In this document: in pieces, positions 2,799 to 40,069 of the stretch
How the letters are laid out: each line of letters opens with the position of its first letter
How positions within the stretch are numbered: the first letter of the stretch is position 1
Sequence record: PX974237.1
Source of the DNA: a phage
Length of the DNA: 44,742 nt
Direction: 5' to 3' (one strand)
Notes under the pieces: generated by a model
What the model was told of the DNA's origin: nothing
What the model saw: only the letters and a program-made list of their open reading frames with translations
Databases searched by the model: none
Program-made: the position numbers and the translations under genes

Positions 2799-3317
2799 TT
2801 ATTCTTCTTCGAAATACTTGTTCTTGATTGCTGTCAGGCGTTCCAGGTACTCAACCAGGTCTTCGTCTTTAATCGCGGCAATCTTCATCTTCTTACCTGT
2901 GAACTCTTCCAGCAGTTCATCAGAATCATCGCACGCGGCATCGATAGGACCTTCATTAATTGCATCGTCGATGGCCTGAATCTGGTCACGCAGAGACTTG
3001 TAATCGACTTCTTCTTTCTCTTCTTCCGGTTCTGGCGCAGGTTCCTCTACTTTAGCTTTACGCGGCTTGCGTTTTGGCTCCTCTTCTTCTGCCGGTTTAG
3101 TGTCAACTACGTCTTCACCTTCAACCGGGATTTCTTTTGTTGCCTCTTTTACAACAGTAGGCGTGATTGTTGCAGTTTCTGCGACACCACTGTCGACGTC
3201 TTTACCATATGGCGCCGTGATAGCCTTCGGCAGTTCAGTACGGCGTGCACTGTTCGCAGCAATCAGTTCATGTGCAACTACGAAACGTTCCAGTAATTTA
3301 ATAAATTGTTCTAACAT
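2799..3317 (-). CDS. Hypothetical acidic protein (172 aa)
   Basis: ORF with Glu/Pro/Lys-rich low-complexity centre; operon context. Confidence 0.5.
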   Translation of the reverse strand: MLEQFIKLLERFVVAHELIAANSARRTELPKAITAPYGKDVDSGVAETATITPTVVKEATKEIPVEGEDVVDTKPAEEEEPKRKPRKAKVEEPAPEPEEEKEEVDYKSLRDQIQAIDDAINEGPIDAACDDSDELLEEFTGKKMKIAAIKDEDLVEYLERLTAIKNKYFEEE

Positions 3318-7503: not shown

Positions 7504-7532
7504 TTGCACACCCCAACATAATAGGATACTAT
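7504..7532 (+). promoter_or_regulatory. Early promoter (TTGCAC-17-TACTAT), conserved family
   Basis: TTGCAC 7504-7509, TACTAT 7527-7532; about 38 bp near-identical to minus-strand promoters at 19051-19079 and 29089-29117. Confidence 0.55.
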
Positions 7533-7998: not shown

Positions 7999-8156
7999 GA
8001 GAAGCATTCGAACGATGGGCCGTCGTCGAGGGTCTGCCGGTTAATAAGGGTTCGAAGAAAGAGTACCTGAACGTTAAGACGCGTCTCGCGTGGCGGGCGT
8101 GGAAAGCTGGTGCGAATGTAATGGCTGGCGCATTTGAGAAGAGAGGCGATTTATGA
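7995..8156 (+). CDS. Hypothetical early protein (53 aa)
   Basis: ATGA start-stop overlap with upstream gene; MREAFERWAVVEGLPVNKG... Confidence 0.4.
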   Translation: MREAFERWAVVEGLPVNKGSKKEYLNVKTRLAWRAWKAGANVMAGAFEKRGDL

Positions 8157-8332
8157 GCAAGTGGATTAAGTGTAGTGAGCGGATGCCTAAATATGGGGAG
8201 TATGTCATTGTCTATGTCCGCGCCGGGTACAGCTATATAGCAAGATACAACGGTGACTTTGTCTGTGATGAATATGTTAAGTGCGCCGGGGTGACCCACT
8301 GGATGCCGTTACCCGAGCCGCCGGAAGTGTGA
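8153..8332 (+). CDS. DUF551-like phage protein (59 aa)
   Basis: MSKWIKCSERMPKYGEYVIV...VTHWMPLPEPPEV matches the DUF551 signature (W-x-C-x-ER-P, THWMPLP). Confidence 0.5.
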   Translation: MSKWIKCSERMPKYGEYVIVYVRAGYSYIARYNGDFVCDEYVKCAGVTHWMPLPEPPEV

Positions 8333-8479
8333 TGTTCAATAGTTTGGGATTTTACTGAGTGACTTACGCTGCTACACAGCAGCGTATCATTTTTCTCATT
8401 TTTGTTCTATTTCACCAAACGCAACAATCGAAGCGACTATTGCAGGAGATGCAACAATACAAACACCAATAAAATTTAC

Positions 8480-8508
8480 TTGCACACTAAGATAGAATAG
8501 GCTACTAT
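8480..8508 (+). promoter_or_regulatory. Early promoter (TTGCAC-17-TACTAT)
   Basis: TTGCAC 8480-8485, TACTAT 8503-8508, then conserved TCAtTTAC motif. Confidence 0.5.
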
Positions 8509-8539
8509 TCATTTACACGAACGAGAGGAGAGACAGAAG

Positions 8540-8758
8540 ATGTTCCTGGAATGCAAATCCTATGATGACTATCGGGCGCTGACTAAAAACGACCTGTATC
8601 ACCTCAAAGAAGACGGCGATGAGAGCCGCTGCTACATAATAGACGACAACGGCACTGAACTTGATGTCTATTACACTGGGTACGGTCGATGGGCGCTATC
8701 CGCAGACGATGACTTTGTGTTTGAAGAATATAACGGGGAGGAGTCGGAAGATGAGTAA
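8540..8758 (+). CDS. Small highly acidic protein (72 aa)
   Basis: ORF with GAGAGGAGAG RBS directly behind an early promoter; about 30 percent Asp/Glu, C-terminal EEYNGEESEDE. Confidence 0.55.
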   Translation: MFLECKSYDDYRALTKNDLYHLKEDGDESRCYIIDDNGTELDVYYTGYGRWALSADDDFVFEEYNGEESEDE

Positions 8759-9053
8759 CAAAAACCAAGTATTCGAGTACCTGATTGACCAACTACGGCA
8801 GCAAGTAAATAACAACCAGTGCGAAGACCTGGCGCATGAGGTGCAGTCACTTAAGAATCAGTTACGTGATGCTTCGGCGCAGATTAAGGAGTTGTATGAG
8901 GCACTGGATGCAGAGCTTAAATACAGCCGTAAGTTTCAAGAAGAGCAATCTGGCCGCAGGAAAGAAGATGCTCATGAATGTAGGCACGAGTGGTCCCGGT
9001 ACATCGTACACCCTCACAGAAAGGTATGCTTGGTGTGCGGAGTAAAGAAATGA
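8751..9053 (+). CDS. Coiled-coil protein with C-terminal Cys/His zinc-ribbon-like module (paralog of 9255..9554)
   Basis: ATG at 8751 overlapping upstream stop; C-terminus HECRHEWSRYIVHPHRKVCLVCGVKK. Confidence 0.5.
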   Translation: MSNKNQVFEYLIDQLRQQVNNNQCEDLAHEVQSLKNQLRDASAQIKELYEALDAELKYSRKFQEEQSGRRKEDAHECRHEWSRYIVHPHRKVCLVCGVKK

Positions 9054-9253
9054 CCAGCATCTTATTCATCTGGGTACTGTCCGCGGGCCAGATGCACCTC
9101 GCGGCATCAGAAACGTTTTACTCAATGGAGGCGTGCCAGTCGGCTGCCCGCGCCGCAGAGAACGCGCACTTTCTGTTTCAGGGTGACAAGCCCATCGATT
9201 CAGAGGTACGCGCTATCTGCTCACCTAAGCGACTTGGTAAACAGGAGAAATAA
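9050..9253 (+). CDS. Small protein with hydrophobic N-terminus (signal-peptide-like), 67 aa
   Basis: ATGA overlap with upstream gene; MTSILFIWVLSAGQMHLAASE... Confidence 0.4.
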   Translation: MTSILFIWVLSAGQMHLAASETFYSMEACQSAARAAENAHFLFQGDKPIDSEVRAICSPKRLGKQEK

Positions 9254-9254
9254 C

Positions 9255-9554
9255 ATGGTACAGAGATATACCTACGACCAGATATTCGGGTTTACTCCTG
9301 ATGTTGAGGGCGTGTTAGTGCTTTACGAAGATTACGCGAAACTTGAAGCTGAGTTACAGAAATACAAAGACCAGTACCCTGATTACGTCGAGTGCGTGAA
9401 CTGTGGGTCGGTTACACATGTGGAGGGGGTCGAAGACGCTATGGGGCAATCCGGTTGCCGTAAAGAAGACGCCAAAGAATGTGAACACGTGTGGAATAGG
9501 TACATTGTACACCCTCACAGAAAGATATGCTTAGTATGCGGGGTGAAGGAATGA
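9255..9554 (+). CDS. Protein with C-terminal Cys/His zinc-ribbon-like module (paralog of 8751..9053)
   Basis: ATG at 9255 with AGGAGA RBS; C-terminus KECEHVWNRYIVHPHRKICLVCGVKE nearly identical to upstream paralog. Confidence 0.5.
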   Translation: MVQRYTYDQIFGFTPDVEGVLVLYEDYAKLEAELQKYKDQYPDYVECVNCGSVTHVEGVEDAMGQSGCRKEDAKECEHVWNRYIVHPHRKICLVCGVKE

Positions 9555-10228: not shown

Positions 10229-10493
10229 GTTATTCTGGTTCTGCGGTATGCTGGCAATCGGAGGCACATCGCTGTTTAATGTGTATCATCCCAGCGTTGA
10301 CGACGGGCTGTTCGGGCGTGTGCTTTATATTCTGACTGCTATTGTCTGCGCCGCCGGATGTATCCACCTGTTACAGGGCAGCATGTCACCTACGCTGCCT
10401 GAGACATTAATCACATTAGTTGCGCTGCGTCAGATTCGTCAGGCGTGGCTGTCGTACGGAGGACATAAGCGTGTCTCGAAACATTTCAGATAA
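10221..10493 (+). CDS. Second small membrane protein of the lysis cassette (holin or antiholin-like)
   Basis: ATG 10221 with GGAGG RBS; two hydrophobic segments; overlaps holin stop and endolysin start. Confidence 0.4.
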   Translation: MNELFWFCGMLAIGGTSLFNVYHPSVDDGLFGRVLYILTAIVCAAGCIHLLQGSMSPTLPETLITLVALRQIRQAWLSYGGHKRVSKHFR

Positions 10494-10959
10494 TGGCATC
10501 AAATTCACCGCTGCGTTCGAGGGATTCCGTGGCACTGCGTATCGCGCTACACCGAACGAGAAGTACCTTACGATTGGGTATGGTCACTACGGGCCGGACG
10601 TTAAGGCGGGGCAGACCATCACTCCAGGACAAGGCCTCCTGTTACTTAATCGCGATATGGCTAAAGCCGTAGCTGCGGTTGACGCAGCAGCACACCATTC
10701 ATTGACACAGGCACAGTTCGATGCAGTGTGCGACCTGGTATACAACGCAGGTGCTGGTGTGATTGCTGCTACTACCGGCACGGGTAAGGCACTGCGTTCT
10801 GGTGATATTGCAACGCTGCGGGCTAAGCTGGCGCTGTTCATCAACCAGAACGGCAAACCGATACTTGGACTGCGTCGTCGTACCGCCGGTCGTCTGGCGC
10901 TGTTCGACGGTAAACCGTGGCAGGAGGCTGAGGCTATCGGGCGCGCGGTGAAAGGTTGA
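10471..10959 (+). CDS. Endolysin, lysozyme-like glycoside hydrolase
   Basis: NGIKFTAAFEGFRGTAYR...TIGYGH resembles lambda R / GH24 lysozyme N-terminal catalytic region; GTG start with GGAGGA RBS (start uncertain). Confidence 0.7.
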   Translation: MSRNISDNGIKFTAAFEGFRGTAYRATPNEKYLTIGYGHYGPDVKAGQTITPGQGLLLLNRDMAKAVAAVDAAAHHSLTQAQFDAVCDLVYNAGAGVIAATTGTGKALRSGDIATLRAKLALFINQNGKPILGLRRRTAGRLALFDGKPWQEAEAIGRAVKG

Positions 10960-19050: not shown

Positions 19051-19079
19051 ATAGTACCCTATTATATTGGGGTGCGCAA
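19051..19079 (-). promoter_or_regulatory. Early-family promoter (TTGCGC-17-TACTAT) driving the membrane peptide and lipoprotein
   Basis: Minus-strand -35 at 19079-19074, -10 at 19056-19051; spacer accccaatataataggg nearly identical to promoter at 7504-7532. Confidence 0.55.
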
Positions 19080-29088: not shown

Positions 29089-29117
29089 ATAGTACACTAT
29101 TATATTGGGGTGTGCAA
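29089..29117 (-). promoter_or_regulatory. Early-family promoter (TTGCAC-17-TACTAT) driving the imm / phosphoesterase / phosphatase / kinase cassette
   Basis: Minus-strand -35 at 29117-29112, -10 at 29094-29089; spacer accccaatataatagtg nearly identical to 7504-7532 and 19051-19079. Confidence 0.55.
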
Positions 29118-37917: not shown

Positions 37918-39903
37918 ATGTCAAGCGGATGCGGTGACGTTTTAAGCCTGGCGGATTTACAAACCGCCAAGAAACACCAAATTTTTGAAGCCGAGGTTAT
38001 CACCGGTAAATCCGGCGGGGTTGCTGGTGGCGCCGATATTGATTACGCGACCAACCCTGTTACCGGGCAGACCCAGAAGACGCTCCCTGCCGTGTTGCGT
38101 GACGCTGGTTTTTCTCCTGTATCGTGGGACTTTTCCACCGGCGGTACGTTAACCGCTAATGACCGCGACAAAGTGGTGTATGACCCTGTACGCAAGACGT
38201 GGTACTCGTATACCGGGACTCTGCCGGTTGTTGTCCCCGCATCGTTTAACCCGGTTGGTAACGCTAACTGGAAGCCGCAGACTGACCCGGATTTGCGTAA
38301 TGATTTGGCGTCAAGTACCGCCGGTTTAGGGGCTTCACTGGTGTCTTTTTCCAACGGTAACACCGTTGAAACATTATCTGACGCGGAAGGTGCCAAGAAC
38401 ATAGGCAGTGGCGAAAGGAGTTTGCTTGCACGTAACAATGATATTAAGCATTCTGGCGACTTTTCTACCCTTCAAGCCGCGGTAGATGCGTCGTTAACTA
38501 AAAACGACTTAATTGTTTCTCCGGGTGAGTATACAGAAGCAATCACTCTGGGTAGTAAGCAGATAAAAGGTGTAGGTGGTGCTGCAATATTAAAACCATC
38601 GGCAAACTATGCAAATACTGTACAGGTTAATTTATCCACCCCGCACTGGCAGTTTCGACACAGCGGTGGTTTTGCCGTAGATGGTACAGGTACAACTGGG
38701 GCCGTAGGTATTAGTTTTGACCCGTCAGACCAATATTCCGGACGTCATAATTTTAGTGATTTATACATCCACAACATCAACAAGGCCATTCAGAAGCCTT
38801 CCGGGAACATCGGTAATACATGGAGAAATATTGGGGTATCTACGTGTGATTGGGGGTATTACGCGATTAGTGGCTCAGAGATGCATTGCGGGGCCGATAC
38901 CCTCTACAATATCCACTTCGACGGCATCTCCACCTATGCCGTCTACCTAAACGGCACTGTCAATAACGGCGGGATAGGCGGATGGTGGCTTAAAGACTCC
39001 ATTATTGAGGCTTCCGGAGGCGGCGGGATATACTTAAAAAGCAAATCGGGTGACTGTCCTACATCTCCATGCGGGGTATCCAATGTAGGGATGGAAGCTA
39101 TTGCAACATCATCGGCTGTTCAGGTAGACGGCGTGGCGCAAAAACCGCGAGTTCTCAAGTTGGTAGACACCGCGATATTCTTTGCTGAGTATTCTTATCT
39201 CAATAACATCGAGCTATCCAACTCCAACTTAGTAACTTATGGTTGCCGTTTTGACAACGCTGATGGTAATCAGGATATTGTAGTGGATGCACAAAGCACC
39301 ATCGTAGCCCACGACGTGTATTTAAACGGCAGCTCTGGAAAGGACGTTATTGTAGAGTCTGTCGCGTCGCAATCCGCAACGATAGCCACTACAAACTTGT
39401 CTCTACGAGGAAATTTAACAAGGGGACGAGTGTTTAATACGCCGACGGGGAATAAGTTAAAAGCTATCACATTTGACTCAGGTAGCCATAATTTTTCTGG
39501 TAGCGGTACCGTTAACGGTTCGACTGTATCTGACGGACTTCACGCCGCTACATGTACCGAATTTTCATTCCCTGGGTCCGGTTTATATGAAATGGTAGCG
39601 TCAAGAACGACACTTACATCCGGCAGATGGTACGTGTGGGGCGTCAACTCTCGCCGCCAATCAGGAACAGCAGATGTGAGTATAACGTCAGGTATTACTA
39701 TGGGTAGCGTTTATACTAAGTCTGGTGAGTGGATTAGCACATTTGGTGTGGGTAAAGCTTCCGCTAACGGTACTGTAGGTCTGTACGTCTCTACTGGGGG
39801 AGGTTCAGGTGCTGTTATCAGATTTAGTGACTTCTTCATCGCTGAGTTTACGACGCAGGCTCAGGCTTTAGCTTTCGCTAACTCCCGAATGTCGTTGGCT
39901 TAA
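37918..39903 (+). CDS. Tailspike / receptor-binding protein with beta-helix (pectate-lyase-like) domain
   Basis: 661 aa; GC-rich N-terminal ~180 aa anchor, then AT-richer region beginning DFSTLQAAVDAS... with Gly/Asn/Ser/Thr-rich repeats typical of beta-helix depolymerases. Confidence 0.6.
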   Translation: MSSGCGDVLSLADLQTAKKHQIFEAEVITGKSGGVAGGADIDYATNPVTGQTQKTLPAVLRDAGFSPVSWDFSTGGTLTANDRDKVVYDPVRKTWYSYTGTLPVVVPASFNPVGNANWKPQTDPDLRNDLASSTAGLGASLVSFSNGNTVETLSDAEGAKNIGSGERSLLARNNDIKHSGDFSTLQAAVDASLTKNDLIVSPGEYTEAITLGSKQIKGVGGAAILKPSANYANTVQVNLSTPHWQFRHSGGFAVDGTGTTGAVGISFDPSDQYSGRHNFSDLYIHNINKAIQKPSGNIGNTWRNIGVSTCDWGYYAISGSEMHCGADTLYNIHFDGISTYAVYLNGTVNNGGIGGWWLKDSIIEASGGGGIYLKSKSGDCPTSPCGVSNVGMEAIATSSAVQVDGVAQKPRVLKLVDTAIFFAEYSYLNNIELSNSNLVTYGCRFDNADGNQDIVVDAQSTIVAHDVYLNGSSGKDVIVESVASQSATIATTNLSLRGNLTRGRVFNTPTGNKLKAITFDSGSHNFSGSGTVNGSTVSDGLHAATCTEFSFPGSGLYEMVASRTTLTSGRWYVWGVNSRRQSGTADVSITSGITMGSVYTKSGEWISTFGVGKASANGTVGLYVSTGGGSGAVIRFSDFFIAEFTTQAQALAFANSRMSLA

Positions 39904-39907
39904 AACT

Positions 39908-39930
39908 AAGGCCCCAAACGGGGCCTTTTC
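39908..39930. terminator. Bidirectional rho-independent terminator
   Basis: aaggcccc-aaac-ggggcctt followed by TTTTCTCT. Confidence 0.7.
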
Positions 39931-39931
39931 T

Positions 39932-40069
39932 CTACTCTTCTGATAACTTCTCCAGTACAAACGCCAGTTGCGCATTAGCGGCGTCTCTTTGCTGACGTAG
40001 CCGCAGAACCTCTTCTTCGAGTTCCTTGATACGTTTTTGCAATGCTGGAATCGGGGCTATGATGTTCAT
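39932..40069 (-). CDS. Small coiled-coil protein (45 aa), last gene of the leftward replication operon
   Basis: ATG overlapping stop of the Toprim gene (ATGA); MNIIAPIPALQKRIKELEEEVLRLRQQRD... Confidence 0.3.
   Translation of the reverse strand: MNIIAPIPALQKRIKELEEEVLRLRQQRDAANAQLAFVLEKLSEE

Follow-up and report, generated by a model that had tools for sequence, protein, structure and literature searches.

A strongly acidic small protein encoded behind a conserved Kagunavirus promoter cassette is predicted to adopt a Gp54-like beta-barrel fold

The DNA analysed here, referred to below as the window, is the whole 44,742-nucleotide stretch of sequence record PX974237.1. It represents a Kagunavirus (Guernseyvirinae, K1G-like virulent E. 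coli siphovirus) and is approximately 90-93% identical to many records. An open reading frame that runs from an ATG start to a TAA stop at positions 8540-8758 of the plus strand encodes a product of 72 amino acids with 12 Asp and 10 Glu residues (22 of 72, 30.6%) and 6 Lys and Arg residues, a net charge of -16 and a pI of 4.05. When the 150 ATG-initiated ORFs of at least 50 amino acids in the window were ranked by acidity, this ORF came first. A Shine-Dalgarno sequence, AGGAG, is located at 8526-8530 (+), 9 nt 5' of the ATG, and it is kept in all Kagunavirus copies of the gene. Both the ORF, with its roughly 30% of Asp and Glu residues, and the strong ribosome-binding site that an earlier sequence-only reading of this DNA had described were thus found exactly in place. 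Pairwise dN/dS ratios across six Kagunavirus copies were 0.02-0.22 and the differences were mostly synonymous, which argues that the ORF is a translated gene under selection. Two antisense ORFs, 8604-8792 (-) and 8671-8850 (-), were rejected as the coding frame; the substitution pattern suits the plus frame. We are nearly certain that the acidic ORF is a real accessory gene. Next in acidity within the window is an ORF at 2799-3317 (-) that encodes 172 amino acids with 26% Asp and Glu; it lies in the replication arm and had no Pfam match.

The acidic gene belongs to a block of small plus-strand ORFs that is flanked on one side by the divergent, minus-strand arm with an HTH regulator (HTH_17) and the helicase-primase, and on the other by the lysis genes, which comprise a holin and an endolysin gene according to the Bas74 annotation and include a Phage_lysozyme match at 10420-10959. 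Toward the acidic gene, a DUF551 gene (8153-8332, +; Pfam E 7e-17) is followed by a terminator-like hairpin and then by a promoter-like element. The hairpin, which was detected by a scan at 8365-8386 (+), has a 9-bp stem and a 4-nt loop followed by a T-rich run, and marks the end of the preceding unit, whose last gene is the DUF551 gene. The promoter-like element, TTGCAC-N17-TACTAT at 8480-8508 (+), belongs to the conserved cassette TTTACTTGCACACTAAGATAGAATAGGCTACTATTCATTTACAC. A generic sigma-70 scan called no promoter upstream of the acidic gene, and the motif was recovered only via its recurrence in the window, where four copies are present (7504-7532 +, 8480-8508 +, 19051-19079 - and 29089-29117 -) versus 0.4 expected. 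All four copies share TTGC[AG]CAC...AATAGnnnACTATTCA, with a Shine-Dalgarno sequence and an ATG 20-45 nt further on. Furthermore, the 88-nt cassette 5' of the acidic gene is conserved in 117 phage records. The recurrent motif, the conserved cassette and the hairpin just upstream bear out the proposal that the gene sits behind a promoter. Early expression, as proposed in the sequence-only reading, is conjectural; the only Kagunavirus transcriptome, that of K1B4, has four early genes, of which just one is named, and is too coarse to place the slot. The two minus-strand promoter copies (~19020 - and ~29040 -) are found in the structural module and precede small ORFs with hydrophobic N-termini (MLVVISVVIAVDAVMF... 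and MTGITMFFLII...); from their sequences, these ORFs look like membrane-protein morons, for example candidates for superinfection exclusion.

A palindrome of the AATAG-N4-CTATT type, AATAGGCTACTATT at 8496-8509, overlaps the -10 hexamer. Seven such palindromes occur in the window, including those at 1036, 3860 and 42238 outside the promoter copies. The overlap suggests that the promoter is regulated, and the palindrome at 8496-8509 is possibly the operator of a phage regulator. A PHIRE motif of the Kagunavirus fBC-Eco01 has the same consensus and was called a phage-RNAP promoter (PMC9825357). Since the annotations inspected in related records included no phage RNA polymerase, a host sigma-70 promoter combined with an operator for a phage DNA-binding regulator is the more likely reading of the motif. 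The scan found no plus-strand terminator from the acidic gene to the holin and endolysin genes approximately 1.2-1.7 kb downstream.

Directly downstream lies a gene of 100 codons (8751-9053, +) whose product matched phrog_6094 (E 4e-38) and contains a coiled coil and a C-terminal CxxC module. Its ATG at 8751 overlaps the last codons and the stop codon of the acidic gene in ATGAGTAA, and because of this overlap the two genes are probably translationally coupled. The last eight residues of the acidic protein are NGEESEDE (codons AAC GGG GAG GAG TCG GAA GAT GAG TAA), and the Shine-Dalgarno sequence of the downstream gene, GGGGAGGAG at 8735-8743 (+), falls within the G-E-E codons of this tail. Unrelated slot proteins that abut the same downstream gene (MSNKN...) end in ...EDPEDE, ...EEPEDE, ...GEADE or ...EVADE, as seen at seven loci whose junctions correspond to window positions 8733-8758. 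Because unrelated proteins abutting the same gene share the acidic ending, the tail appears to be imposed in large part by the Shine-Dalgarno sequence and the overlapping start codon of the next gene. In addition, the tail is missing from divergent family members elsewhere and is disordered in the AF2 model described below, with pLDDT < 50 at residues 70-72. When residues 65-72 are left out, 17 acidic and 6 basic residues are left, and the barrel proper is very acidic throughout the family. The acidic C-terminal tail noted in the sequence-only reading is therefore present, but it is mostly dictated by the signals of the next gene, and part of the signal that drew attention to this protein is a by-product of gene overlap, which calls for caution with the method. 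The genes at 8751-9053 and 9252-9554 (+) have near-identical C-termini of ~30 amino acids (RKEDAxECxHxWxRYIVHPHRKxCLVCGVK) that form a zinc-ribbon-like CxxC module, and this repeat may drive deletions and fusions in the region. The gene at 9252-9554 also gave a weak, sub-threshold match to Lar restriction alleviation proteins (PF14354, E 0.0012).

The slot behind the promoter cassette is hypervariable. Across ~25 cassette loci, the first gene behind the cassette encodes at least 10 unrelated small proteins. The acidic gene is first in the window and in SZH-1, while another small gene is inserted between it and the cassette in Bas74 and phiWAO78-1; in TPH05A and BCH953P1 it comes after different genes and only the ribosome-binding site is retained. 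The Kagunavirus BUCT825 carries, directly behind an identical cassette and 3' of the same DUF551 gene and hairpin, a homologue of Gp54 from phage Bas11. Because the same cassette is found in the window and in BUCT825, one and the same slot is filled in two ways, by the acidic protein in the former and by a true Gp54 homologue in the latter. Gp54 matched 215 phage records by tblastn, which are mostly Drexlerviridae and also include BUCT825 (43% identity, E 6e-8); the BUCT825 homologue has 61 amino acids and is a member of phrog_7421. We searched for a Gp54 paralogue in the window and found none. BUCT825 has an extra 56-codon gene between the hairpin and the cassette (2180-2440 of its locus, corresponding to 8387-8470 of the window), which is deleted in the window except for its first few bases.

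By tblastn, the acidic gene was detected in 18 of 50,697 phage records, comprising 9 Kagunavirus records at 88-96% identity, 6 records at 57% and 3 Drexlerviridae (Braunvirinae) at 43%. One of the close copies, Bas74_0063 of phage Bas74 from the BASEL collection, is 90% identical. Word-index searches and an exhaustive HMMER profile scan of 1.84 billion representatives yielded ~9 full-length clusters, and the sole match outside the family was a spurious repeat protein (P0016). No significant family match to the acidic protein was found in Pfam, PHROG, NCBIfam or PDB sequences; at E <= 1, Pfam gave only an irrelevant 11-bit match. In the Drexlerviridae phage TR3, the homologue stands alone between minor tail genes with its own promoter-like sequence and terminator hairpin. 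The P0015 copy adjoins a gene for a DUF3799 exonuclease, and the P0012 copy is in an array of small genes upstream of a DnaB-like helicase gene. Judging from these gene neighbourhoods, the acidic gene is a mobile, stand-alone moron in unrelated siphoviruses, and its absence from relatives, rather than a knockout, suggests that it is dispensable. In phage ECO104 4-5-2, an ORF of 63 codons (2296-2487 of locus L003) lies directly upstream of a 57%-identical homologue; its product is rich in Asp, Glu and aromatic residues (...YIEADSGYTWTFRDEGDGYYGCTDINGKHVSFLVE) and may likewise be a small protein of this beta-rich kind.

This distribution bears on two other roles. The product could be a small virion-associated or structural accessory protein, as hinted at by weak matches of family members to the 'virion structural protein' family phrog_14592 (E ~1e-3), by the label 'putative minor capsid protein' on the best BFVD match, and by the position of the TR3 homologue between minor tail genes. 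However, these 'virion' and 'capsid' labels are unverified automatic annotations, the TR3 copy is moron-like with its own promoter and terminator, and the window gene is one of the small ORFs that separate the regulator from the lysis genes, a long way from the structural module; in addition, the gene is absent from most Kagunavirus genomes. We consider a virion role very improbable. T7 Gp2 and Gp5.9 are small acidic phage proteins that act in host takeover, and the acidic protein could likewise act on a housekeeping protein (RNA polymerase, a nucleoid protein, FtsZ or a nuclease) and not on a defence system. The slot context and the charge speak for such a factor just as they do for a DNA mimic. 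Genes of this kind are usually genus-wide, however, whereas the acidic gene was found at 88-96% identity in only 9 records compared to 117 for the cassette, and many of its alleles are truncated or deleted, so that we regard this role as rather unlikely.

The family has a conserved core, F[LI]EC..[YF]W.LT.GD[LI]Y...DGDES..[YF]I.DD.GT.L...L.AD...F, which is kept across three or four phage lineages. The net charge of its members is -8 to -17, compared to 0 to -5 in the Gp54 family, and the acidity is kept even at 36-42% identity. An EF-hand or calcium-loop reading of the DGDES and DDNGT segments was rejected; their spacing misfits, and they fall between predicted strands as hairpin turns. AF2 modelling was performed without templates. 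With six sequences the pLDDT was 67.5, and with ten sequences, which added members of 36-49% identity, the model reached a pLDDT of 83.4 and a pTM of 0.67. The model is all-beta, with six strands (2-5, 19-25, 30-34, 40-47, 50-53 and 60-64), a long loop at residues 6-18 and a disordered tail at 65-72. A Foldseek search against BFVD returned uncharacterised proteins of 60-80 residues from T1-like and other enterobacterial siphoviruses with TM scores of 0.7-0.8. Among these matches was the W011D protein A0A4Y5NR62 (73 amino acids, TM 0.72), which tblastn ties to Gp54.

Gp54 of Bas11 is a protein of 66 amino acids that is dispensable in the laboratory and is expressed from its own promoter (Zhang et al., Nature 2024, PMC11578894). 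It forms a six-stranded barrel with a prominent beta1-beta2 loop, a very rare topology. CapRelSJ46, a fused toxin-antitoxin, is activated when Gp54 binds to its antitoxin domain, and on binding the beta1-beta2 loop of Gp54 refolds into an extra strand (PMC11578894). Not all close Gp54 homologues trigger CapRelSJ46, and the authors speculated that the native role of Gp54 is to inhibit another defence system (PMC11578894); a later study in this line of research, published in 2026, likewise assigned no function to it. We confirmed that the product of Bas11 gene 54 (bas11_0054; 39780-39980, -, of record L010) is identical to the protein in 9AXB and 9ERV. The predicted model of the acidic protein is likewise a six-stranded small barrel with a prominent beta1-beta2 loop, and its strand order and its loop at 6-18 agree with the published description of Gp54. 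Because no templates were used and 9AXB was released in November 2024, this match is independent of the prediction. It is thus likely, given the model, that the acidic protein has a Gp54-like fold.

Sequence comparisons between the two families were negative. The hhalign probabilities against two Gp54-family alignments were 5.4% and 2.0%; the local alignment keeps the register of the structural alignment but lacks significance. A shuffle-based test of ungapped column scores, acidic family against Gp54 family, was not significant either. The motifs LTxG and WxLxxD can be aligned by eye at a constant offset of +2, which we did not count as evidence. The acidic protein gave no match to phrog_7421, while Gp54 and the BUCT825 protein match it at E 2e-18 and 5e-21, respectively. 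The link to Gp54 rests on one predicted structure, from an alignment of ten sequences, and on gene position. From the predicted fold, equal size, loop layout, shared slot and shared phage groups, we consider the chances for and against common ancestry with Gp54 to be about even. The fold match says little about mechanism, because the native function of Gp54 is itself unassigned.

Unusually many alleles of the acidic gene are disrupted. In phiWAO78-1 (1501-1716 of locus L005), codon 32 is a premature TAA; the clusters P0006, P0009, P0013 and P0014 are truncated, frameshifted or internally deleted, and P0007 is a fusion. Some of these disrupted alleles may be metagenome assembly artefacts. In addition, codon 12 of the window copy (8573-8575) encodes Arg (CGG), while all ten other members, down to 36% identity, have Trp (TGG), which makes it a radical replacement. 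Residue 12 lies in the long beta1-beta2 loop, whose counterpart segment in Gp54 refolds on CapRel binding, and the window copy with Arg12 may be a functionally altered allele. The broken alleles and Arg12 recall the escape mutants that lost gene 54 function when selected by CapRelSJ46, and they could also reflect assembly artefacts or neutral loss. On another account, the gene would bring little current benefit, being a drifting or selfish cassette gene that is mainly a liability sensed by host immunity, as Gp54 is by CapRelSJ46. Such a gene would fit the predicted fold of a known immune trigger, the unusual number of broken alleles and the replacement of an otherwise invariant Trp in the window. 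However, the intact copies are under strong purifying selection (dN/dS ~0.1), a core conserved in three or four phage lineages speaks for a function under selection, and part of the broken alleles may be artefacts. We therefore regard a gene of little benefit as decidedly unlikely and favour a selected accessory function.

The charge of the protein had led the sequence-only reading to propose a DNA mimic of the Ocr or ArdA type. Membership in the Ocr family (T7 Gp0.3, PF08684) was rejected on the lack of a Pfam match and on the all-beta model, and membership in the ArdA family (PF07275) on the lack of matches in Pfam and among PDB sequences. In the strict form of this proposal, the acidic surface would imitate the phosphate backbone and block type I R-M, BREX or another DNA-binding defence. 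The high carboxylate density expected of a DNA mimic is present (30.6% Asp and Glu, net -16, pI 4.05; -8 to -17 across the family), it is conserved in the distant members, the slot is promoter-proximal and accessory, and a neighbouring gene has the sub-threshold Lar-like match. On the other hand, the protein matched neither Ocr nor ArdA nor any other Pfam, PHROG or NCBIfam family, and a monomeric barrel of 64 residues would offer a surface equivalent to no more than a few base pairs. Several of the conserved acidic residues are in the hairpin-turn motifs DGDES and DDNGT and are probably structural, and the overlap with the next gene largely accounts for the acidic tail. It is the composition that would speak for strict Ocr/ArdA-type mimicry, and we consider such mimicry unlikely. 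The Ocr and ArdA analogies thus failed, with no sequence match and a compact all-beta barrel as the model, while the broader idea of a small accessory protein that engages host factors or defences fits the hypervariable slot, the patchy distribution, the moron character and the conserved acidity.

Taken together, these results lead us to favour, by a modest margin of confidence, a non-essential Kagunavirus accessory gene whose product is a barrel of the Gp54 fold that serves as a protein-binding module against a host protein. The acidic gene would come first in a transcription unit driven from the conserved, phage-specific promoter cassette. Its product is predicted to be a six-stranded beta-barrel of ~64 residues with a long beta1-beta2 loop and a short, disordered acidic tail. 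By analogy with Gp54, it would work as a stand-alone protein-binding module and would most likely bind and block a host protein; judging by the conserved negative charge, the putative target would be a protein of the host or of a defence system that binds nucleic acids. Conversely, the acidic protein may itself be recognised by a host immune sensor. That it is specifically an anti-defence or host-takeover binder is proposed tentatively. In a bolder version, which we consider improbable, the acidic family and Gp54 would be divergent branches of one superfamily of promoter-proximal, exchangeable 'decoy' barrels, with the acidic branch acting as a DNA or tRNA mimic that inhibits defence. If true, the Gp54 fold would gain its first native function, host sensors such as CapRelSJ46 would be explained, and the broken alleles and the W12R replacement in the window would be footprints of sensor escape.

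Gp54 of Bas11 is among the few phage proteins shown to be directly sensed by a bacterial immunity protein, and its fold has been called very rare. What is new here is a second family with this predicted fold, one that is strongly acidic, unrelated to Gp54 in sequence and located in the same slot next to the promoter in a different phage genus. This suggests that the Gp54 fold recurs among enterobacterial siphoviruses as an exchangeable accessory module. The acidic family offers a contrast set for studying the task of these barrels, and for asking if sensors of the CapRel type respond to the fold as such or just to certain sequences. The copy in the BASEL phage Bas74 makes the acidic gene experimentally tractable.

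Among known systems, Ocr and ArdA share with the acidic protein a small size, a high acidity, a gene carried by a phage or plasmid and a position close to a promoter. Both form elongated dimers, helical in Ocr and multi-domain in ArdA, whereas the acidic protein is modelled as a compact all-beta barrel. SH3-like small beta-barrels (the RecD SH3-like domain, FeoA and eukaryotic SH3) have five strands in contrast to the six of the model; their scores were far below that of the Gp54 match, and they show no sequence relationship. The closest likeness is to Gp54 (PDB 9AXB; CapRelSJ46 complex 9ERV), with 66 compared to 72 amino acids. Both are encoded by small stand-alone genes with their own promoter that are dispensable (presumably so for the acidic gene) and patchy in enterobacterial siphoviruses, and in BUCT825 the slot behind this promoter is filled by a member of phrog_7421. 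The two differ in that no sequence similarity is detectable and the acidic protein falls outside phrog_7421, in its net charge of -16 compared to 0 to -5 in Gp54 relatives, and in the motifs of its family, F[LI]EC, YWxLTxGD[LI]Y, DGDES, DDxGT and LxAD. On the basis of the model, the acidic protein would represent a separate, much more acidic sequence family of the Gp54 fold.
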